Source: an uncultured Clostridia bacterium
GTDB taxonomy: Bacteria; Bacillota; Clostridia; TANB77; CAG-508
Direction: 5' to 3'
NCBI GenBank assembly: GCA_928721565.1
Contig: OV788638.1
Location: 1,484,850 to 1,548,849, forward strand
Length of the DNA stretch: 64,000 bases
Made by a program: the position numbers and the translations under genes. The notes under the pieces were generated by a model that was given only the letters and a program-made list of their open reading frames with translations, made no database searches and was not told the DNA's origin. Shown piece after piece: positions 14,241 to 51,454 of the stretch (positions are counted from its first letter, which is position 1; every line of letters begins with the position of its first letter).

Positions 14241-15317
14241 CTAATCATCATCTTCTTCAAATTCCTCATTCGGTAATTTTTTTATATATAAATTTAATTC
14301 TTCTTCCGTTGGCAATTTCTCCATTATTTCTTTTGGAATAACATTTTTTACTTTATATGAAGCTACTCCTATTGGGGCATTTACACTTTTTAAAGACCAT
14401 TCGACTGTTAGTTTATCTTTATCTTCACAAAGTAATAATCCTATCGTTTCATTATCTGTTTCTTTTTTCAAAGTTTCATCAACTGCTGTTACATAAAATC
14501 CTAATTGTCCAACATATTCAGGTCTAAATTCTGTATTTTTTAATTCTACAACTACGAAACATCTTAAATCCAAGTGATAAAATAATAAATCTATATAATA
14601 ATCATTATTATTCGTTGAAATTTTGTATTGATTTCCAACAAAACTGAAGCCCTTTCCTAATTCAAGTAATACATTCTTTATTCTTTCTAACATTGCATTT
14701 TCAATGTCTCTTTCTCTTGCTTTTTTTCCTATATTAGCTAATTCAAAAATATATGGATCTTTTATCATATCTCTGGCAAATTCACTTTGTGCAATAGATA
14801 GCTTATCATTAAAATTTGTCATTTTCTCTGGAATAGCTTGTCTTTCATATAATTCTAAATCAATTTGATGGCTTAATACAGTTTTAGACCACCCATTTTC
14901 AATAATTTGCTTAGCATACCAAACTCTTTTATCAATATCTTCGATCTTATCTACTAAAATACAATTTTGAGACCATGATATTGTTTCCAATTCTTTGGGA
15001 ATACTAGCTAAATCTTTATATGCTTCGTATACTTTTCTCATTCTTGCTAGATTACGTGCTGAAAAGCCTTGTTCATCTGGAAAATCTAATTTTAATGCAA
15101 CTGATAATCTATTAATAAAATTATTTCCGTATTTAGCATTATCACTAATTATTTTTCCCAACCTTAAATAAAAATTGACAACTTCTTTATTAGCTTTTGA
15201 AATGATGTTATATCTTGTATCTAAAATATCCTTTTCAATATCTTTTACAATTTTTACAAAGTCGTCATCTAATAGTTCAAGTTTGTTTGACATATTGTTT
15301 ATGTACCTCACTTTCAT
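14241..15317 (-). CDS. YhcG-like PD-(D/E)XK nuclease family protein (DUF1016)
   Basis: N-terminal DUF1016-like region plus a C-terminal PD-(D/E)XK-like core (DLLFYH...LRCFVVVELK). Confidence 0.6.
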   Translation of the reverse strand: MKVRYINNMSNKLELLDDDFVKIVKDIEKDILDTRYNIISKANKEVVNFYLRLGKIISDNAKYGNNFINRLSVALKLDFPDEQGFSARNLARMRKVYEAYKDLASIPKELETISWSQNCILVDKIEDIDKRVWYAKQIIENGWSKTVLSHQIDLELYERQAIPEKMTNFNDKLSIAQSEFARDMIKDPYIFELANIGKKARERDIENAMLERIKNVLLELGKGFSFVGNQYKISTNNNDYYIDLLFYHLDLRCFVVVELKNTEFRPEYVGQLGFYVTAVDETLKKETDNETIGLLLCEDKDKLTVEWSLKSVNAPIGVASYKVKNVIPKEIMEKLPTEEELNLYIKKLPNEEFEEDDD

Positions 15318-25668: not shown

Positions 25669-25960
25669 TTTATTAAAACCTCCTAGTTTTACATATAAAT
25701 TATAATTAAATATTCCTTCTTTCCATTATTATTTATATAAAAAAAACTGGCATCTTTTACAATGTCAGTCGACCTTGCTCTTATTGTTTTTCTACAAATA
25801 TTATTTAGATTTCTTTCTGTTATATACAATAAATGCCTAGGTGGCAGCGTACTTAACATACGCTTAGCTTTTAGCTACCTTACCTAGGTCTTACTCTATA
25901 AATATTTTAACATACAATAAAATGTATGTCAAATATTTTATTAATATTTTATGTCAAAAT

Positions 25961-26350
25961 TCATTTTTTATTACTATTATTTCTTGGGAATAAACTTACT
26001 CTAAAATTTTTAAGTTTTAATTCTTCTATCAATTTCTTAACAATGCTAATATCTTTATAATAATTATAAAAAGTATTTACTGTTAAATCAGCAAGTTGAA
26101 TAGCATAATTAGTTTTAGAATCATAATATGTTATTTTAAAATCATCATCATATATACAAAATTCAGTCTTTAAATATGTTTCTAAATTATTCAATTCTCC
26201 AACTCTTATATTTCTATTATCAATACTTATAATAAATTCAATTGGTTCATTTATTTCTTGTAAATTTAATACTGGTAAAATACAATCTTGAATCAAAACT
26301 TTTACTGCATAATTAAAAAATATGTTCGAATCCACTATTTCTTTTCTCAT
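25961..26350 (-). CDS. hypothetical protein
   Basis: 129-aa ORF. Confidence 0.3.
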   Translation of the reverse strand: MRKEIVDSNIFFNYAVKVLIQDCILPVLNLQEINEPIEFIISIDNRNIRVGELNNLETYLKTEFCIYDDDFKITYYDSKTNYAIQLADLTVNTFYNYYKDISIVKKLIEELKLKNFRVSLFPRNNSNKK

Positions 26351-26560
26351 ATATTTTTTATCAAATACTTTTACACAACCATGAAATGTTTCAATATCTT
26401 GTATTTTATTAAAAATTTGTATTTTTTCTTCTTCAAAGCAAAATATCCTCCTACTGCAAAATATCGTGTTTTACTATTTTTATGAATTGATCCGACTTTC
26501 ATCTAAAAATACATATATTTTCATTTTCTCCCTCCTTTTTGCAATTATTATTTATATTGA

Positions 26561-29371: not shown

Positions 29372-29479
29372 TTCCCTTCTTATATATTTATCGACTTGTT
29401 ATAATATATCATGATTATATGGACTTTTCAAGTATTTTTGATGATTTTTTTTTCAAACCCATTATCTTGTAATGCAAGC

Positions 29480-29511
29480 TCAAAAAGAAGCTCCCACTTG
29501 AGAGCTTCTTC
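29480..29511 (-). terminator. intrinsic terminator after the ClpX-like ATPase gene (bidirectional)
   Basis: Stem AAGAAGCTC/GAGCTTCTT with T-runs on both strands. Confidence 0.5.
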
Positions 29512-29525
29512 TTTTGATTTTATGG

Positions 29526-30617
29526 TTACTTTAAAATATATTTTGTGTTATCTTCTTCAATTCCTTCTTGTAAAATTACTTCTTTATAGGTACCTTTTGG
29601 CTTTGACATAACTTGATACATAATTTGGTCAAATATATAATTTGTTACATTAGCAAGCTCACGAGCCCCAGTTTCTTTGCCTTCTCTTTTTGCTTTTTGG
29701 GCAAATGCACTTATATTCTTTTGGGTGTATTTTGTTGTAATCCCATCATTTTTCAGACAGTTTACATACATTTTGAATCTAGACTTTTTTGAACTTGTTA
29801 GAATATTTTCAAGTACTTCTTCTGATAATTCATTTAATTGAACTATCTTATCAATTCTTCCAATAAATTCTTCTTTAAGTCCAAATTTAATCAAGTCACT
29901 CTTTTTAATCTTTTTATCTAACTGCATCTGCTTTTCTGATATTTTTTCTGCTGAAAATCCCATCTTCATTTCTTTTCTTAATCTTGCTTTTACTATTTCA
30001 TCAATTCCAGAAAATGCTCCAGCAAAATAAAACATAATTTTATCTGTTTTCATTTCAACAGAATCAATGATTCCATTTGCTCTGATTAGCTGAAGTGGTA
30101 TCGTCTTTCCTTCAATTAGCTTAAGTAGTGCATCTTGCACTCCCTTTCCAGAAATATCGTGTTGGATAGGATCTTTAGAAGCTGCTTTTTTATCGATTTC
30201 ATCAATAATTATTATTCCATTTTCTGCTCTTTCTACATCATATTCCGCAGCCTCGAGCAGTTGAATAATAATATCTGACACACTTGATCCCATATAACCT
30301 TCTGTTGTGTAATCATTTGCATCTATAGTTATACAAACTTTCCCTGTTTTTTTAGCAAGCTGTCTTAAAATCTCAGTTTTACCAGTTCCACTTTTTCCAA
30401 CAATCAACACATTCGATTTTATTTTATAATTGATTGATTTGTATTCAGCATTTACAATCTGCCGTACTTGTTCATCTTGACCTTTTACAGTATCTAAAAT
30501 AAACTTTTCAGTTTCTGTAATTGTTGGAATTCTAACAACTCTAACGACCTGTTTTCCTTGAGGCAAATTTTCTTTTGGAACAGTTCTTAACTTTTTCTTT
30601 AATAATGCCTTTTTCAT
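29526..30617 (-). CDS. ClpX-like AAA+ unfoldase paralog lacking the N-terminal zinc-binding domain
   Basis: Its core aligns block-by-block with the ClpX encoded in this same window (48042..49343): Walker A GKSGTGKTE vs GPTGCGKTL; pore loop GYMG vs GYVG; IIIDEIDK vs IYIDEIDK; GKGVQDALLKLIEG vs [14 protein letters not shown]. It keeps a GF loop (KMGFSAEK vs SMGFGADI). There is no C4 zinc-finger N-terminus. Confidence 0.7.
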   Translation of the reverse strand: MKKALLKKKLRTVPKENLPQGKQVVRVVRIPTITETEKFILDTVKGQDEQVRQIVNAEYKSINYKIKSNVLIVGKSGTGKTEILRQLAKKTGKVCITIDANDYTTEGYMGSSVSDIIIQLLEAAEYDVERAENGIIIIDEIDKKAASKDPIQHDISGKGVQDALLKLIEGKTIPLQLIRANGIIDSVEMKTDKIMFYFAGAFSGIDEIVKARLRKEMKMGFSAEKISEKQMQLDKKIKKSDLIKFGLKEEFIGRIDKIVQLNELSEEVLENILTSSKKSRFKMYVNCLKNDGITTKYTQKNISAFAQKAKREGKETGARELANVTNYIFDQIMYQVMSKPKGTYKEVILQEGIEEDNTKYILK

Positions 30618-30677
30618 GATAGATACCTCCTTTTTTTGTATCTAAGATATCTTAGATAGTACTTCATTAATGAAGTA

Positions 30678-32198
30678 CTATCTAGAATAAGAACTTCTTC
30701 TCCTACAAATCATTCTGAGTTTTCTTTTCTTTTTCTCCTTCTCTTCTTTTTTAGGTAGTTCTTGTTTATTTTTGATAACTGTATAGAGTTTAGCACCCAT
30801 AATTTTTATAAAACCATAATGTGCTAGCTTTACAGTGTATTCTCCAAGAACTTCAACCCTTTTAGCAATATTGGCATTTTCAACTCTTACTGCAAATTTT
30901 TTCTTAGTTTCGATTTCTCCATGATTTACTAAAACTAATTTTAAGTTTTTGAATCTAGAAAGCAATTCTAATAATTCATCTGCCTTTGCATGAGATGAAA
31001 ACTGACTCGTTGAATGAATCTGAGCTTTAACATAAACCTCCTGTCCCATAATTTTAATTGCTTTGTCTTCGAATTCATTATCAATAAGTTTCCGTCCAAG
31101 AGTTTCTTCACTACAATAGCTTGTTAAGAAAATTGCCCAGTTTTCGTTACTAATAACAAATGGTAAATACAACTGTGCTGGACCATGATCAAGCATTCCA
31201 GAGGTTGTTAAAATAATCTTTTGTCCTTTGGATGCCATTACAAATGGTCTAGTATCTTTGTCTACCCAATGGAAGTTTTCTGGAAGAAATTCTAACTTTT
31301 CTTCTTCAATTTCAAGTTCACCACTTCGATATTTATGTGTATATTGATGTGATAAATTTCCATCCAAATAAATAGGAATTTCTTTACTGATTCTTCCATC
31401 ATCTTGCATCTGCTTAAGAATAAACAAAATCTCCTGAGCTCTACCCTGTGCTAATACTGGAATAAACAAACTTTTTCTTTGCTCCAGTATCGTTTTTACC
31501 TCATCTTCAAAATTGTATTGAATCTCTTTAGTTTCTGTATCACCATAAGTAGATTCAATAATAACATTCATAGGTAATTCGTAAACCCACTGTGGTACTG
31601 GTTGAACATCTTTAAAAATGTTATATGGCTTATAGTCTCCTGTAAAGAATAAGTTTATATCCTGTTCTCCAGGGTAACTAATCTGTACAAGAATCATCCC
31701 TGCACCAATAATATGACCATTGTCAAAGTACGTTATTTTGATGTTTGGACTAATCTGAATTTCTTCATTAATGTCACATGGTTCTAAGTATTCAAATACT
31801 CGTTCAACATCTTCTTCCTCATAAAGAGGTTTTGATTTTTGTCTTTGAGAATCTTCTTTCATTATCTGATATGAATTACTTAATGAAATTCTCAAAAGCT
31901 TGCTTGTTGATTTGGTTGCAAATATTTTTCCATGAAAACCATACTTAGTTAATAATGGTAATTTTCCAACATGATCTGCATGATTATGTGTAATTAATAC
32001 AAATTCAATGTCTTCACTTGAAAACGGAAAATCTAATTTATTCAGCTCATTGTACAGCTTTTCTTGAAAAAGACCACAATCGACTATAAATTTAATTTTC
32101 CGTCCATTTGGTAAATGCACAACCACTAGCAAACAAGATCATGTAACTTCTAGGTGTAATGCTGTAATGTGTACATAAAGCTTTTCTTTTGAACCCAT
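30678..32198 (-). CDS. beta-CASP MBL-fold metallo-hydrolase (RNase J/CPSF-like nuclease) with an in-frame TGA at 32139..32141
   Basis: HNHADH, GHIIGAG, TGD, ESTYG and a C-terminal HSTSQFSSHA are the MBL and beta-CASP motifs. Upstream, RBS GGAGAG-ATG (32198) gives MGSKEKLYVHITALHLEVT-TGA-SCLLVVVHL, where the stop replaces the Gly of the conserved EVTGSC motif (GGA to TGA). The ORF track therefore starts at an internal TTG (32132). Confidence 0.7.
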
Positions 32199-32335
32199 AA
32201 AATCTCTCCTTTACAATATATCAAAATATTTTTTTGATATGAAAGAATTATGTTAATAGTTACATTCCTATTATACACAGATTTCTTCAATAATTCAATA
32301 CTTTTAGCATACTTTTTTCAAAATTTCATAATTTT

Positions 32336-38840: not shown

Positions 38841-39434
38841 CTATCTGGTTGATGACGAAGTAGAATGTTGGTTCCATTCAAAACCAAAATCACTTCTTTT
38901 TATTTTACACATTTCTCCATTTTCTCTATAAAAAACTATTCCTTCTATATAATGATTTCTAAGATACTCTTTTATTCCATCATAATCTCTTGGCACATTG
39001 TCCAATATCCTATTTCCATGTTTTTCTAAAATATCTTCATCTAAATTATATGGATTTCCATTTAAATGCTTTCCTATTAATTCATATGTTCCATCTTCTA
39101 AATTTTCATTTTTTTGTCTCTCAAATGCTTCCAATTGATATTTACTATTTAAATCATCTGGTACGCATAATATCCAATGTGGAAAATGTCCCGTTATTGA
39201 ATCAGCTTTTTCTTGGCAAGGAATTGCTCCCTTAGGTAATTTTCTACCTTTTTTGTAATCATATCTCCTATATATTTTTCCATCTTTTATCAAACAACAT
39301 GTACCATCTATTTTCTCTGTTGCCCAGCCCTCTCCATCTAATACCCATTTGCAGTCTGGTTCTACTTCATTTAAACATTTTGCTATTTTATGGTTTTCGA
39401 ATTGTCTTTTAAAAAGTGTTTTCATTTTCTTCAT
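38841..39434 (-). CDS. RNA ligase family protein (nucleotidyltransferase motif I KxDG)
   Basis: GWATEKIDGTCCLIK matches the KxDG adenylylation motif of ATP-dependent ligases. Its ~200-aa size fits stand-alone bacterial RNA_ligase-domain proteins. Confidence 0.5.
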   Translation of the reverse strand: MKKMKTLFKRQFENHKIAKCLNEVEPDCKWVLDGEGWATEKIDGTCCLIKDGKIYRRYDYKKGRKLPKGAIPCQEKADSITGHFPHWILCVPDDLNSKYQLEAFERQKNENLEDGTYELIGKHLNGNPYNLDEDILEKHGNRILDNVPRDYDGIKEYLRNHYIEGIVFYRENGEMCKIKRSDFGFEWNQHSTSSSTR

Positions 39435-39446
39435 CTAATTCACTTC

Positions 39447-40646
39447 CTATTCTAATAAAAAATCGATTAGATATTTAATCTTAATACCTTCTTCTGATGT
39501 ATTATTATATAATCTGTCCATTGTTATAACTGTTTTTTCATAATTATCTTTTATATTTTTTAGTACTCCAAGTTCACGTTTTTTCACATTGTCATCTAAC
39601 ATTGTATATGTCACTTGATAATATTTTTTATCATTTGGCTTTGTTGCTATAAAATCAACTTCTAAAGAATCATTTTTTCCAACAGTAACATCGTATCCTC
39701 GTCTTATTAATTCAAAATAAACTACGTTTTCTATAATATGTCCAAAATCTGAATCTCTAAATCCTAATGTAACATTTCTTATTCCAGTATCCACAATATA
39801 ATATTTTTCTAATGTTTTTAATATTTCTTTTCCTTTAATATCATATCTTGGAACTTTATATATGATATATGCATTTTCTAACATTTGCAAATAATTTAGA
39901 ACTGTATTATGTGTTATTTTTGTGCCTTGGCTTGTTAAAAAATCTGCAATTTTCTTTGAAGAAATTAAACTTCCAATATTACTCATTAAAAATCTCAAAA
40001 TTTTTTCAAGTAATATCGCATCTAATAACTTATTTCTTTCTACTACATCTTTCATAAATACTGTATTATATATACCTTTTATTGCATTTTCATATAGGTT
40101 TTCTTCATTTTTTATAGTTATAATTCCTGGCATACCACCGAATTTTATATATTCAATGAATTTATCTTCTAATGTTTTTTTATCTTCTAATACTGTAAAA
40201 TCTAAATATTCCTTGAAAGATAATGGTAATACTTTTATTTCAACATATCTTCCTGATAAATATGTTGACAACTCTGATGATAACAAATATGCATTTGAAC
40301 CTGTTATATAGATATCACTCTTAAAATCTACTATCATAGCATTTACAGCTTTTTCCCATTCTTCAATTCTTTGAACTTCATCTAGCAATATATAATTTGT
40401 CTTTGTTCTTATGATTCTTTTGCTTATTTTATTATACATATCTTTATAGTTAACAATGTCATCATATTCAAAAGATTCAAAATTCATATATATTACATTT
40501 GCATTTTTGTCTTCCTCTAATATTTTTTCCATAAAAAGTTTTAATAAACTCGATTTTCCACATCTTCTAATTCCTGTTATAACTTTTATAAATTCAGTAT
40601 CTTTATATGCTAATAATTTGTTCATATATATGTCTCTATTTACCAT
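39447..40646 (-). CDS. AAA+ ATPase with DUF4143 C-terminal domain
   Basis: Walker A GIRRCGKSSLL and Walker B ILLDEVQ; architecture typical of the AAA_14/DUF4143 family. Confidence 0.65.
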   Translation of the reverse strand: MVNRDIYMNKLLAYKDTEFIKVITGIRRCGKSSLLKLFMEKILEEDKNANVIYMNFESFEYDDIVNYKDMYNKISKRIIRTKTNYILLDEVQRIEEWEKAVNAMIVDFKSDIYITGSNAYLLSSELSTYLSGRYVEIKVLPLSFKEYLDFTVLEDKKTLEDKFIEYIKFGGMPGIITIKNEENLYENAIKGIYNTVFMKDVVERNKLLDAILLEKILRFLMSNIGSLISSKKIADFLTSQGTKITHNTVLNYLQMLENAYIIYKVPRYDIKGKEILKTLEKYYIVDTGIRNVTLGFRDSDFGHIIENVVYFELIRRGYDVTVGKNDSLEVDFIATKPNDKKYYQVTYTMLDDNVKKRELGVLKNIKDNYEKTVITMDRLYNNTSEEGIKIKYLIDFLLE

Positions 40647-40754: not shown

Positions 40755-42296
40755 TTAGTGCTGCTGCTTTTTAAAATTAAAATACAAATCAACTTGTTTG
40801 TCTTGATGAATTTCAATTCTATTAATAATTACTTTCATAATCTCTGGAGTTGGTTTTTTTAATTCCAAAAATTCTCGTACAACATTTTTTATTTTTTCAG
40901 TCTTATTTTGTTTTGTTTCTTCTTTTTGTTTATTGATTTCTATATATTCGCTCTCTTTCTTTTTTATTTTTTCTTGCAATTTTTTTAATACTCTTTCATA
41001 CATTTTTTCACTTATTTTATTATTTAATTTATCTAAATACATTTTGTCAATATTATTATTTACCAATTTAATTTCATTTTCTAATTTTTGAAGTATTTTT
41101 TCATAATTGTATTTAATCATTCTGTTTTTTATGTTTAACTCAAGTCTTTCATTATCAATGTCTTTAAATAAACTTCTTATGTAATTAAGAATCGATTCTT
41201 CTAGGTTATTATAGCTAAATCCATGAGAAGTACAAAATCCTAATTTTGAGCTTCTTCGATAGTTATTACATACCATGTAATAACGTCCCTTTTTTTCTCC
41301 TCTTACGCCTATCTTATGTTTACATTCATAGCAAAATAGTAAGCCATCCAACAAAAATGTATTTTTCTTTTCATTTCTATTATAGCTCTGAACTATTATC
41401 ATTTTTTGTACAACCTCAAATACTTTTTTATCTATTATTGGTTCATGTGTATTTTCTACAGTTACCCATTTTTCTTCTGGATTTGGTCTAATTTTTCTAT
41501 TTTTGTAACTTATTCTACTTCTTTTATTCTGTACTGTTGTACCTATATAAACTTTATTCTTTAATATGTTTTTTACTGTTTTATTTTCCCAAAATGTTTC
41601 TTTATTGTATCTCGACTTATTGGCCGTTGGAATATCTCTATTATTTAAATAATCTCTTATTTCTCCAACTTGTTTTCCATTAGATGCCATATTAAAGATG
41701 TTTCTTACAATTTGAGCTTCTGGTTCATAAATTATTAGTTTATTTTTATCATTTATATCTTTTGTGTATCCAAGTGGCGTTTTTCCTCCTACCCATTTTC
41801 CTTGTTTTTGCATTGTGTGCATTGCTGTCCTAATTTTCTTTGATAAGTCTTTCGAATACATATCATTTAATATTGACTTAAATGGAGCAATATCATTATT
41901 ACCATTTGATGCTTCAAAAGTATCTATTCCATCTGTTACTGAAACATATCTTACATTATTTTCTGGAAACCATTTTTCTATATATTCTCCTGTTTCTATA
42001 TAGTCACGTCCTAGACGAGATAAATCTTTTGTTACAACCATATTAATTTTCCCGTTTTCAATATCTCTTACCATTCTTTGAAAATCCGGTCTATTAAAAT
42101 TTGTCCCAGTAAAACCCTGATCAATATATGTATCTATTAATTGGTACTTACCTCCTAATTTTTGCACATATTCTGTTAGTAATGTTCTTTGATTTTTTAT
42201 ACTTTCACTTTCATTATAACCTCTGTCTACATCTTCTTTTGATAACCTTATATAAATTGCTACTTTGTAAATTGTTTTCTCTATCTGTTCAAGCAT
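40755..42296 (-). mobile_element. large serine recombinase (resolvase/invertase catalytic domain + recombinase domain + zinc ribbon)
   Basis: N-terminus VAIYIRLSKEDVDRGYNESESIKNQR (catalytic Ser); central recombinase domain; CxxC...C region (CYECKH...CNNYRR); C-terminal coiled coil. 513 aa. Confidence 0.8.
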
Positions 42297-48041: not shown

Positions 48042-49343
48042 TTATGCTGTTTCTTTTTGCTCAACAGCAATTCTTTCATTTCTGACTTTTTTTACTTTAT
48101 TGGGATTTTCTATAATTCTTGGTTCTTGATTGTCTACAACAGTCTCCCTTGTAACAATACACTGTTCAATCTTTTCATTAGATGGAATATCAAACATGAT
48201 GTCTCTCATAATTTCTTCTATTATAGAACGTAATCCTCTAGCACCAGTTTTTCTCTCAATTGCTTTATCTACAATAGCTTCTAGTGCTTCATGCTCAAAT
48301 ATTAATTCTACATCATCCATTTGCAATAACTTTTTATATTGTTTTACTAATGCATTTTTTGGTTCTGTAGTGATCTTAATTAAAGCTTCTCTATCTAATT
48401 CTCTTAGTGTTGCAATTATTGGCAATCTTCCTATAAATTCTGGAATCATACCAAATTTTAATAAATCTTGTGGTAATATTTGCTCAAATACTTTGTATCT
48501 ATCTATATCTTTTTTGCTTTCAATATCTGCTCCAAATCCCATTGATTTTTTACCAATTCTGTCTTTTATAATATTTTCAAGGCCTTCAAAAGCTCCACCA
48601 CATATAAATAGTATATTTGATGTATTTATCTGTAATAACTCTTGTTGTGGATGTTTTCTTCCCCCTTGTGGTGGAACAGATGCAATTGTTCCTTCCACAA
48701 TTTTCAATAGAGCTTGTTGTACACCTTCTCCACTAACATCTCTTGTTATAGATGGATTTTCAGATTTTCTTGTTATCTTATCAATCTCATCTATATAGAT
48801 TATTCCTTTTTCTGCTTTTTCTATATCACCATCAGCAGCTTGAATCAATTTTAAGAGAATATTTTCAACATCTTCTCCTACATATCCAGCCTCTGTAAGT
48901 GTTGTAGCATCAGCAATAGCAAAAGGAACATTTAATATTTTTGCAAGAGTACTTGCAAGTAAAGTTTTTCCACAACCTGTTGGTCCTAATAATAAAATAT
49001 TGCTTTTTTGTATTTCTACATCATCATCTTCTCTTTCATGTGCTATTCTTTTATAATGGTTATATACAGCAACTGACAATGTTTTCTTTGCCTCATCTTG
49101 ACCAATTACATATTGATCCAATATTTCTTTTATTTCTCTTGGGCTTGGTATTTTATCTAATCCAGCTAAAGTGTAAGCATCATCATCTTCATCATAAAAT
49201 TCACTTTCGATTATTTCATTGCATAGCCCTATACATTCATTACAAATATATACACCTGGACCTGCAACTATCTTTTTTACGCTTTCTTGTGTTTTACCAC
49301 AAAATGAACATTTTACACCTTTAGGTGTATCATTTTTTGCCAT
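48042..49343 (-). CDS. clpX: ATP-dependent Clp protease ATP-binding subunit ClpX
   Basis: C4 zinc finger CSFCGK...CNEC; Walker A GPTGCGKT; GYVG pore loop; IGF-type loop MGFGA. 433 aa, directly downstream of clpP. Confidence 0.93.
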
Positions 49344-49385
49344 CTATATTTCTCCTTTTCTTATTTTATTAAATTCTAAAAAGAA

Positions 49386-49997
49386 CTATATTCTTTTGTC
49401 CATAATTCCATCAATAAGACCATACTCTAAAGCTTCTTGAGCTGTCATATAATGGTCTCTTTCAGTATCTCTTTCGATTGTTTCTATAGATTGACCTGTT
49501 TTTTCACTTAATAATTTATTTAATTTTTCTCTTGTTCTTATCATATGATCTGCATGAATTTTGATTTCTGTAGCTTGACCAGAAATACCTCCACCTTGAC
49601 CACCAATTAATGGTTGATGTATCAATATTTCTGAATTTGGTGTAGCATATCTTTTTCCTTTTTCACCATTTGCTAGTAACACTGCACCAAAACTTGCAGC
49701 TAATCCAACACATATTGTTGAAACTGGGCATTTAATATAATTCATTGTATCTACAATACCCATTCCATCTGTAATAGATCCACCAGGTGAATTTATATAT
49801 AAAAATATTTCTTTATCTGGATCTTCTGACTCTAAGAATAATAATTGTGCAATTATTAAACTTGCTGATGTTGGATTTACATCTTCACCTAAAAATATTA
49901 TTCTATCTTTTAATAATCTTGAGAATATATCATATGATCTTTCTCCTTTACTTGTTTGTTCAACTACATATGGTACCAAACTGTCTTTTTCTAACAT
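49386..49997 (-). CDS. clpP: ATP-dependent Clp protease proteolytic subunit ClpP
   Basis: Catalytic triad context GLAASFGA (Ser), HQPL (His). ~200 aa. RBS AAAGGAGGAAAAAGT. Confidence 0.93.
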
Positions 49998-50012
49998 ACT
50001 TTTTCCTCCTTT

Positions 50013-50075
50013 GGTTCATTTGGGACCGGTTCTTAAATGAACAATGTTCATTTGGGACCGGTTCTTAAATGAACA
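50013..50075. repeat. tandem pair of near-perfect GGGACCGGTTC-core palindromic elements (copies F1, F2) in the clpP 5' leader
   Basis: TGGTTCATTTGGGACCGGTTCTTAAATGAACA and ATGTTCATTTGGGACCGGTTCTTAAATGAACA; 32-bp spacing; they end 15 bp from the clpP start codon, adjacent to the RBS. Confidence 0.9.
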
Positions 50076-50107
50076 AATTAACTAAAATAAAAAGGCAAAT
50101 TAAGAAT

Positions 50108-51454
50108 CTATACCAATTTGCCCCTTTTTTTGCTATTTTTGCTAGTTGCTTTTTTTGTTTCTTTTTTCTTTTCTATAACTTTTGCATTTTTTACTATGAA
50201 TTCTAATGCTTTTTCTGACTTGATTCCTTCTTCTAAGTAAGTTTTTAAGTTTTCATTTTTACTTAATTCTTCTACATCTTTTCCATAGCTTTTAGCCATT
50301 TCTTCCATTTTTGCTTTTATTTCTTTTTCACTTGCTTCTATTTTTTCTGCTTTTATTATAGCTTCTAATACAAGTCTTGATTTTATTGCTTCAATAGCTT
50401 GTGGCTCATATTCTTTTCTCATTTCTTCTTCTGTTTTTCCTAGCATTTTTAGGTATTGTTCTAGATTTAAACCTTGATATGCAAGTCTTTGTTCAAAGTC
50501 TTTTAACATATTATCTATTTCTAGTTCTACCATTCCTGATGGAATATCTAATTTAGCATCTTCGCATACAGCTTTTATTGCTGCTTCTTCTGTTTCATAT
50601 TTTGCTTTTTGCTCATTGCTTTTTGCTAACTTTTCTTTAATACTTTTCTTTAATTCATCAAGTGTATCAAATTCACTTACGTCTTTGGCAAATTCGTCAT
50701 CTAATTCTGGTAATTCTTTTTTCTTAATATCATGTAATTTCACTTTAAATATAGCTTCTTTTCCAGCTAAATCTTTTGAAAAATATTCTTTTGGGAATGT
50801 AACTTTGATTTCTTTTTCTGAGTCTCTTTCCATTCCTACTAATTGTTCTTCAAATCCTGGAATAAATGCTCCGCTTCCTATTTCTAATTCATGACCTTCT
50901 GCTTTTCCACCTTCGAATGCTACTCCATCAACAAATCCTTCAAAATCAATTGTTGCTGTATCACCATTTTCTAAAGCTCTATCATCAACTGTTATTAGTC
51001 TTGAATTGTGTTCTTGCATATGACCTAATTCATGTTCAATATCTTTTTTGTCTACTTTATATTCGATTTTTGGAATTTCTATTCCTTTATAATTTCCAAG
51101 TTCAACTTCTGGCTTTGTTTGAACTACTGCTGTGAATATTAAGTCTTTTCCTTTTTCCATTTGAGTAATATCAACTTCTGGTCTACTTACTACATCTATT
51201 TTATTTTCTTTTAAAGCTTCTTCATAGGCTTCAGTTGCAACATCATTAAATGCATCTTCATAGAATATTTGCTCTCCATAGTATTTTTCTACTATATTCA
51301 TTGGTGCTTTTCCTTTTCTGAAACCTGGTATGTTAAAGTATTTTGCATTTTGAAAATATACTTTTTTCATAGCATTTTCAAATTTTTCTGCTTCTACTGT
51401 AATTTCTAATTTTACTTCATTTGCTTTTTTTGTTTTTTCTACTTTACAATTCAT
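50108..51454 (-). CDS. tig: trigger factor
   Basis: Ribosome-binding N-domain (GFRKGKAP), PPIase domain, C-terminal domain. 448 aa. Upstream of clpP-clpX as in Firmicutes. Confidence 0.9.
   Translation of the reverse strand: MNCKVEKTKKANEVKLEITVEAEKFENAMKKVYFQNAKYFNIPGFRKGKAPMNIVEKYYGEQIFYEDAFNDVATEAYEEALKENKIDVVSRPEVDITQMEKGKDLIFTAVVQTKPEVELGNYKGIEIPKIEYKVDKKDIEHELGHMQEHNSRLITVDDRALENGDTATIDFEGFVDGVAFEGGKAEGHELEIGSGAFIPGFEEQLVGMERDSEKEIKVTFPKEYFSKDLAGKEAIFKVKLHDIKKKELPELDDEFAKDVSEFDTLDELKKSIKEKLAKSNEQKAKYETEEAAIKAVCEDAKLDIPSGMVELEIDNMLKDFEQRLAYQGLNLEQYLKMLGKTEEEMRKEYEPQAIEAIKSRLVLEAIIKAEKIEASEKEIKAKMEEMAKSYGKDVEELSKNENLKTYLEEGIKSEKALEFIVKNAKVIEKKKETKKATSKNSKKRGKLV

Follow-up and report, generated by a model that had tools for sequence, protein, structure and literature searches.

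A predicted ClpX-derived unfoldase without zinc finger and its separable neighbour, a CPSF73-type beta-CASP nuclease, in uncultured gut Clostridia

Do a ClpX-like protein unfoldase and a nuclease encoded side by side in a small bacterial genome work together, or are they neighbours by descent only? This question is raised by two genes in a 64,000-nucleotide stretch of contig OV788638.1 (assembly GCA_928721565.1, an uncultured Clostridia bacterium), which in its full length is called the window here. The upstream gene encodes a beta-CASP metallo-beta-lactamase (MBL) nuclease and the downstream gene an AAA+ ATPase; both lie on the minus strand. An earlier note, made from the letters alone, had given coordinates that proved exact and had proposed an extra, specialised unfoldase-nuclease module. 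We found that the gene pair is genuine and previously undescribed and that the nuclease belongs to the poorly understood bacterial CPSF73-like group. As far as can be judged from related loci (given below by L numbers), it is a co-inherited but separable gene pair. Co-inheritance and co-divergence of the two genes support the proposed module in part, whereas the pairing turned out to be facultative and the nuclease gene to be broken in this genome. The literature search returned nothing relevant on ClpX together with beta-CASP, or on ClpX-like paralogues with nuclease or defence, in agreement with the note, which had not recognized the pairing as a described system.

To begin with the ATPase, it shares 36% identity with the ClpX of the window, and all of its best matches among solved structures are ClpX (E 2e-50), as expected for the ClpX homologue that it had been taken for. 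Walker A (GKSGTGKT), Walker B (IIIIDEIDK), the arginine finger (EFIGRID) and sensor 2 (TGARE) are present and conserved in the ATPase family, as in the AAA+ module of the ClpX fold, and the pore-2 region is kept as well. The aromatic pore-1 loop, GYVG in ClpX, reads GYMG in the window protein and GYYG, GFVG or AYKG in its relatives. The GF loop, which the note had also recognized, is the tripeptide MGF in both the ATPase and the genuine ClpX of the genome; it corresponds to the ClpP-docking (IGF-type) loop, and its residues G220 and F221 do not vary among 19 members of the family, which have the tripeptide [MIL]GF. An AlphaFold model of the ATPase (predicted local distance difference test, pLDDT, 82; predicted template modelling score, pTM, 0.77) has the ClpX fold behind a disordered, Lys-rich stretch of residues 1-27. 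Foldseek aligned this model to ClpX chains of ClpXP complexes with template modelling (TM) scores of 0.78-0.80, and solved deltaN-ClpX-ClpP complexes were among the best structural matches.

What had been claimed about the missing C4 zinc domain also holds. There is no zf-C4_ClpX Pfam match and only two cysteines occur in the whole protein, and the domain is missing from all 18 aligned family members. A start codon further upstream that would supply the zinc finger, and so turn the protein into an ordinary ClpX variant, is excluded by an in-frame TAA 13 codons 5' of the ATG. The RKH loop is absent too, as GGRKHPQQE of the window ClpX aligns with IRANGIIDS of the ATPase in a region that is variable across the family. 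On the NCBIfam ClpX equivalog models TIGR00382 and NF003745 the ATPase scores 229 and 211.7 bits versus cut-offs of 359 and 370.75, and the real ClpX of the window scores 675 and 673 bits. The family has a conserved C-terminal motif of its own, GIEEDNTKYILK. Judged from these alignments the protein is in effect a natural 'ClpX-deltaN', a probable ClpX descendant without zinc finger and RKH loop which appears to have gained its N-terminal tail and C-terminal motif; it is predicted to be ClpX-like in its expected working, yet it is not ClpX by the family's own criteria. Its ratio of nonsynonymous to synonymous substitution rates (dN/dS) is 0.16 against L001. N-domain-less ClpX still works with ClpP, and because the [MIL]GF loop is invariant in addition, the ATPase probably forms hexamers that dock on ClpP. 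ClpP, its presumed partner in proteolysis, is encoded outside the operon, in the genuine tig-clpP-clpX cluster that had correctly been located elsewhere in the window (Table 1).

Gut metagenomes contain many unnamed homologues of the ATPase (350-430 residues, 42-92% identity). In a scan with one genome per species we found them in 25 species, all of them uncultured 'Clostridium sp.' or 'Clostridia bacterium' gut assemblies, and the family was found only in such uncultured low-GC gut Clostridia. It is monophyletic in a neighbour-joining tree, splits into two deep subclades and stands apart from canonical ClpX as well as from longer ClpX-like proteins of Bacilli, candidate phyla radiation (CPR) bacteria and other phyla. 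A profile search against 1.84 billion cluster representatives gave only a few dozen 50%-identity clusters that score above the ClpX continuum. The genome scan also returned further ClpX-like proteins of 460-680 residues that have no zinc finger or a different N terminus (L037-L094, for example L039-L044 and L068-L094); they come from uncultured Bacilli/Tenericutes, CPR, Melainabacteria, Deltaproteobacteria, Nitrospinota and others and form separate deep clades. ClpX-like paralogues seem to be more diverse than in the textbook picture.

The upstream gene shows all the hallmarks of its family. Pfam assigns it the domains Beta-Casp (75.7 bits, gathering score 27.7), RMMBL (44.1, gathering score 21.6) and Lactamase_B_6 (37.1), and the motifs HNHADH, NGH, TGDY, ESTYGD, SSHA and NHGE cover MBL motifs 1-4 and beta-CASP motifs A, B and C. 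An alignment with 15 relatives shows no variation at residues H71, H73, D75, H76, H162, D188, E215, H403 and H426. Among solved structures the protein comes closest to RNase TTHA0252 of Thermus thermophilus (E 2.6e-40 over residues 17-431), with CPSF73-type enzymes of archaea and eukaryotes next, and it is also related to aCPSF1; its activity is probably that of a ribonuclease. It is not an RNase J (15.9 bits on the RnjA model, cut-off 820), and its 248.5 bits on the model of Cas14 from type VII CRISPR systems, far below the cut-off of 800, reflect general beta-CASP similarity; a CRISPR array was not searched for. Compared with TTHA0252 the nuclease is about 70 residues longer, and a basic C-terminal tail is found in the window's subgroup.

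The note had described this nuclease as a 500-residue protein. Its domains and catalytic motifs were recognized correctly, but the reading frame is not intact, since a TGA at codon 20 had been read through. The longest clean frame covers only 30678..32132. The window nuclease is 91% identical to an intact orthologue of 504 residues in L001, and in the 88-96%-identical orthologues of L001-L003 and L106 the position of the stop is a GGT codon for glycine, a residue that is invariant among 15 diverse aligned relatives. A truncated product of 480 residues is on record for this genome and one of 482 residues for a second assembly, versus 502-506 residues for the other 13 members listed in the same 90% cluster. 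The two assemblies may share reads, and a sequencing or assembly error as source of the TGA is unlikely as the truncated product occurs in both. Recoding of the TGA (as glycine in code 25, as tryptophan in code 4 or as selenocysteine) was ruled out, because TGA is a normal stop here and the homologues have glycine and not cysteine at this position: TGA ends 7 of the 52 open reading frames of the window and alternates with TAA and TAG at the ytvI stop of orthologues, from which we conclude that the standard genetic code applies. No suppressor tRNA was found in the window. Compared with its orthologues, the codon is a real nonsense mutation, apparently of the GGA-to-TGA type. Restarts at GTG or TTG in the surviving downstream frame have no ribosome-binding site and would lose the first strand with the conserved VTGS turn, and therefore the nuclease is most likely non-functional in this strain. 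The mutation looks recent, as the dN/dS of 0.105 against L001 mostly reflects the time before it.

Similar decay is seen in relatives. Beta-CASP genes carry in-frame stops at codon 334 in L098 and codon 387 in L160, both TGA at a conserved glycine, and the site in L160 is GGA in the near-identical L149; frameshifts were found in L020, L121 and L123. The ATPase gene is disrupted in L134 (GAA to TAA) and L122 (frameshift). As these are metagenome assemblies, some of the frameshifts may be assembly errors. All three beta-CASP stops (window, L098 and L160) are changes from GGA (Gly) to TGA at conserved glycines, and together with the ATPase stop of L134 all four nonsense codons go back to a G-to-T change at the first codon position. 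Three out of three GGA-to-TGA changes exceed the chance expectation, which is roughly 0.001-0.06 depending on the assumptions. A mundane candidate explanation is a G-to-T mutational bias combined with better survival of leaky UGA alleles.

Both genes are best read as a chromosomal two-gene operon with the predicted order promoter, nuclease, hairpin, ATPase and terminator. They lie on the same strand behind a predicted upstream promoter, whose sequence is conserved in L001-L003, each has a Shine-Dalgarno sequence, the gap from the TAG stop of the nuclease to the ATPase start is 60 nt, and a hairpin follows the ATPase gene; gap and final terminator are as given in the note. The nuclease start codon ATG at 32198 has a good ribosome-binding site. 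The note had seen no terminator between the genes, and indeed none of the canonical type is present, but a very stable and conserved hairpin had been overlooked, which has a folding energy of -25.9 kcal/mol (z = -5.5) and a stem that is kept in L001, L003 and L106 by two compensatory double changes. A second palindrome, ATCTAAGATATCTTAGAT, overlaps this hairpin, extends to about 30641, adjoins the ribosome-binding site of the ATPase and is able to pair with that region. Hairpin and palindrome could be an element of processing, stability or translational control or a palindromic protein-binding site, while the leader palindrome in front of the nuclease gene (fold z = -3.9, conserved in L001-L003) could be an operator or an RNA hairpin. 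Neither the leader nor the intergenic region matched a known RNA element in Rfam at E <= 1.

Table 1: Positions of the gene pair, its control elements and other features of the window.
Feature	Position	Strand	Basis
beta-CASP nuclease gene and ClpX-like ATPase gene, co-directional	29526..32198	-	open reading frame list
sigma-70-type promoter TTGAAT-17-TATAAT, 5' of the nuclease gene	32270..32298	-	consensus scan, 10/12
leader palindrome or hairpin ATATCAAAA-AAATA-TTTTGATAT, between promoter and nuclease Shine-Dalgarno sequence AAGGAGAG	32218..32240	-	direct reading
beta-CASP MBL nuclease gene, bacterial CPSF73/TTHA0252 type, 506 codons, one in-frame stop	30678..32198	-	
premature TGA (codon 20) in place of the EVTGSC glycine (EVT-stop-SC)	32139..32141	-	orthologue alignment
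hairpin with perfect 14-bp stem and no U tract, including/beginning at the nuclease stop codon	30653..30684	-	folding
ATPase Shine-Dalgarno sequence AAGGAGGT	30625..30632	-	
ClpX-derived AAA+ unfoldase, 363 residues, intact	29526..30617	-	open reading frame, profiles, alignment, model
hairpin terminator 3' of the ATPase gene, minus-strand stem then UUUUUGAG	29485..29510	-	scan and folding
separate secA promoter, beyond the ATPase terminator	29403..29431		
genuine tig-clpP-clpX cluster	48042..51454		context
clpP, presumed proteolytic partner, outside the operon	49386..49997	-	NCBIfam ClpP, 308.9 bits
genuine clpX, directly downstream of clpP	48042..49343		
insertion of ~750 bp relative to L001, just downstream of secA	25795..26542		
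129-residue open reading frame in this insertion	25961..26350	-	
CMP-kinase-like P-loop protein, 382 residues	34905..36053	-	
RLIG1-like RNA ligase fragment	38841..39434		
AAA_14+DUF4143 ATPase	39447..40646		
large serine recombinase	40755..42296		
YhcG/DUF1016 PDDEXK nuclease	14241..15317		

How often the two genes adjoin was followed from both sides, and homologues are syntenic in many other genomes, the opposite of what the note had named as fatal to its reading. Starting from the ATPase, 9 of the 25 species have a beta-CASP gene immediately upstream on the same strand and one further species has it 1.7 kb downstream, and the linked cases belong to both deep ATPase subclades. Starting from the nuclease, a metagenome scan gave 80 loci with 18 informative beta-CASP clusters at 85% identity, five of which are linked to the ATPase: four have the nuclease followed by the ATPase, and one has the order swapped (L120, L121 and L123, between DUF1980 and secA). 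Two more clusters have the nuclease followed by a PIN-PhoH gene. The adjacency holds down to about 42% ATPase identity and in differing flanks, and the gap between the genes is 7-22 bp in most linked lineages. L097, which had been considered as an ATPase-only version of the locus, was dropped, as its contig ends 200 bp past the ATPase and its sister lineage has the ATPase followed by the nuclease.

The slot in front of the ATPase is not always filled by the same gene. L007 has a beta-CASP gene of another subfamily there, 31-38% identical to all others, and the abundant lineage of L004-L006 a PIN-PhoH gene instead of beta-CASP. In L004, a terminator and a promoter separate PIN-PhoH and ATPase into two transcription units and no beta-CASP remnant was found in the 320-bp spacer between them, which weakens the reading of an effector swap. 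With respect to the surroundings, the pair lies between secA and prfB in members of the second ATPase subclade (L130 4001..8172 and L133 59..478), and L036 has a release-factor gene directly upstream of the ATPase; the pair has thus remained near secA and prfB even between distantly related lineages. Elsewhere (L159 4001..8928, also L165, L172, L174, L175 and L182-L184) a beta-CASP gene is followed by PIN-PhoH and then recJ beside an aminoacyl-tRNA synthetase gene; judged from the predicted products, this is a string of genes for nucleic-acid processing within housekeeping surroundings.

Besides being adjacent, the two genes diverge together. Their pairwise identities correlate with r = 0.75 over 13 linked loci (e.g. 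74/74, 72/72 and 64/68), L007 being the main outlier. Compared with L016 the nucleotide identity is 83-89% in the ytvI/DUF1980 flank, drops to 63-77% in the two genes and rises to 95-98% in secA; compared with L007 it is 85-93% in the same flank, 47-58% in the nuclease and 63-69% in the ATPase gene, and the downstream sequence is not homologous. In comparisons with L015, L016 and L007 the synonymous divergence (dS) is 1.4-2.3 in the pair versus 0.2-0.9 in the flanks, and the vertical comparison with L001 gives a similar dS for all genes. With a dN/dS of 0.10-0.28 both genes are normally under purifying selection, and since the excess of synonymous divergence cannot come from protein selection, it points to an older or foreign origin of the two-gene block. 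This pattern indicates that the pair was replaced or transferred as a unit, probably by allelic replacement or transfer.

The reading that we prefer, tentatively and with a probability which we would put just short of even, is an inherited but facultative operon of an RNase and a ClpP-compatible unfoldase with a degradosome-like division of labour. The operon would have been inherited from an ancestor of the clade of uncultured low-GC gut Clostridia, and the ATPase hexamer would use the single ClpP of the cell with a substrate range of its own. Where the nuclease is present both proteins would act on the same targets, with the unfoldase stripping or degrading RNA-bound proteins so that the exo/endonuclease can proceed, a logic known from degradosomes or the archaeal Cdc48-aRNase J complex. 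As the partnership would be facultative, the ATPase would also have nuclease-independent substrates. Although we infer functional cooperation of the two proteins from the data above, several observations weigh against it. The ATPase does not always stand beside a beta-CASP gene, a question already raised in the earlier note: none was found in its neighbourhood in 15 of the 25 species, where unrelated housekeeping genes (Peptidase_S11, SLT, PBP1A, HemN-like protein or release factor) lie upstream. The nuclease for its part stands alone in 11 of the 18 clusters, and in L101-L103 the window's own locus (ytvI, DUF1980, X, secA) has the nuclease and no ATPase. The basic C-terminal tail of the nuclease was considered as a recognition tag specific to linked pairs, but it shows no correlation with linkage. 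The genome studied here has a broken nuclease gene next to an ATPase gene that is intact and constrained, and hence the ATPase does not need the nuclease; evidently it works alone too, both here and in the majority of species with an ATPase of this family. Finally, the adjacency could simply be inherited from a single ancestral gene order near secA and prfB.

Taken to its end, this last point means that the genes are neighbours by descent only, with unrelated housekeeping roles, an ancestral adjacency near secA-prfB and later loss or movement of either, an account that we consider possible but on balance doubtful. It agrees with the frequent occurrence of each gene without the other, with the intact ATPase next to a broken nuclease and with the location of the pair in the secA-prfB neighbourhood in both ATPase subclades, which fits vertical inheritance; as beta-CASP is also found beside PIN-PhoH and RecJ, an ancestral gene row with differential loss could even give all of the adjacencies. 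Yet an adjacency that survives a swap of order and changed flanks is not what it would lead one to expect, the gaps of 7-22 bp indicate co-transcription, the sharp edges of the more deeply diverged block that both genes share, seen at synonymous sites, imply that they were replaced together, and L007 has a beta-CASP of a different subfamily in the same slot before the ATPase. Going beyond the operon that we favour, ATPase and nuclease might form a physical unfoldase-nuclease machine of a kind not described in bacteria, a reading that we regard as unlikely. The machine could use ATP to strip proteins from RNA (or from stalled transcription or translation complexes) and be coupled to an RNase of the 5'-3' 'torpedo' type, or else be a mobile cassette for conflict with a constant ClpX-like motor and exchangeable nuclease effectors.

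The idea of conflict or defence, to which the earlier note had also pointed, would make the ATPase a constant sensor or motor combined with an exchangeable and potentially toxic nuclease (beta-CASP of type 1 or type 2, or PIN-PhoH) directed against phages or mobile elements. A hypervariable island between highly conserved flanks, as in the comparisons with L016 and L007, three different nucleases in front of the ATPase, the presence/absence polymorphism at the locus and repeated disruption of the nuclease (window, L098, L020, L121, L123 and L160) would all suit such a module. However, part of the frameshifts in metagenome assemblies is technical, PIN-PhoH and ATPase of L004 are separate transcription units, selection on both genes is purifying and not diversifying (dN/dS 0.10-0.28), many species retain the ATPase by itself among housekeeping genes, and the neighbourhood of the pair consists of core housekeeping genes. 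Neither protein had a meaningful match to a defence system in PADLOC-DB 2.0, where only generic P-loop stretches (mad8 at 4.9e-05, IetA at 2.7e-04) and, as best match of the nuclease, PDC-M48B at 0.009 were returned. PHROG matches exist, but in the phage databases only distant homologues (<=37% identity) and no phage with both genes were found, which also speaks against a phage origin of the pair. We therefore see a defence role as very unlikely. Highly improbable, finally, is a proteolytic safety catch in which ATPase and ClpP mainly degrade the neighbouring nuclease and so set its level. The retained ClpP-docking loop is compatible with it, the operon would couple synthesis of the nuclease to that of its regulator, and the conserved hairpin and the palindrome near the ribosome-binding site could set the ratio of the two; but most species, and this strain as well, keep the ATPase with no functional nuclease next to it, and no conserved degron was found, the C termini of the nucleases being variable and not tracking linkage.

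The neighbours of the locus are a CMP-kinase-like gene, a CBS-domain gene, ytvI, DUF1980, secA, guaA and clpB. The CMP-kinase-like P-loop protein has an extra C-terminal region and gives weak nSTAND3 and KTI12 matches, and its gene evolves faster than is usual around it (dN/dS 0.37-0.54, 50-53% identity versus 75-80% in the flanks). The reading frame in the insertion downstream of secA matches only the C-terminal half of DUF3800 and is a gene fragment. Further genes of the window that look accessory are the RNA ligase fragment, the AAA_14+DUF4143 ATPase, the serine recombinase and the YhcG/DUF1016 nuclease listed in Table 1.

ClpX is among the best-studied molecular machines, and the zinc-finger domain and the RKH loops are considered major determinants of its choice of substrates. 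The ATPase described here is a natural paralogue that has neither, has kept the docking loop, is under purifying selection and exists beside a canonical ClpX, and it would show how a second specificity class of a ClpP protease is built. Its hosts are abundant, uncultured Clostridia of the human gut with genomes of about 1.5 Mb (1.55 Mb in this case), and in genomes this small an additional AAA+ motor would probably not have been kept without a use. The recurrent, co-evolving pairing is moreover a handle on a possible coupling of AAA+ unfoldases with RNA-decay nucleases in bacteria, as it exists in archaea and eukaryotes.

Among known couplings of an RNase to an NTPase motor, the PhoH2/YlaK-type PIN-PhoH proteins and the RNA degradosomes come to mind. 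PIN-PhoH replaces beta-CASP beside the ATPase in one lineage and follows beta-CASP in others, although the PIN-PhoH gene of L004 is a transcription unit of its own. The motors also differ in what they work on, which is RNA for PhoH and DEAD-box proteins and a translocated polypeptide for the ClpX type. A loose precedent for a beta-CASP ribonuclease functionally associated with an AAA+ unfoldase is the RecJ3/4-aRNase J complex of Haloferax volcanii, which is associated with the AAA+ ATPase Cdc48a (PMC10470531), and the beta-CASP gene adjoins recJ in some relatives of this family; the complex differs in being archaeal, in having a Cdc48 and not a ClpX-like ATPase and in being linked via a ubiquitin-like modifier and not by an operon, and homology of the whole systems is not implied. 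With TTHA0252 and the other 'bacterial CPSF73 homologues' the nuclease shares the minimal architecture of MBL, beta-CASP and RMMBL and all catalytic motifs, but it differs from TTHA0252 in its greater length, the basic C-terminal tail and the premature stop. Bacterial CPSF homologues occur 'mainly in Clostridia and Proteobacteria' and have no known physiological role (PMC8501993), and the pairing with the ATPase offers a handle on what they do. The ATPase itself resembles ClpX, and in particular the engineered ClpX-deltaN used in structural work on ClpXP, in fold, Walker A/B, arginine finger, sensor 2, aromatic pore-1 loop and [MIL]GF loop, and its size is that of ClpX minus the N domain. It is set apart from ClpX by the lack of the zinc-finger N domain and of the RKH loop, by its Lys-rich disordered N-terminal tail and the GIEEDNTKYILK C terminus, and by scores below the equivalog cut-offs, and it belongs to a separate monophyletic clade confined to uncultured gut Clostridia and exists beside a canonical clpP-clpX pair.

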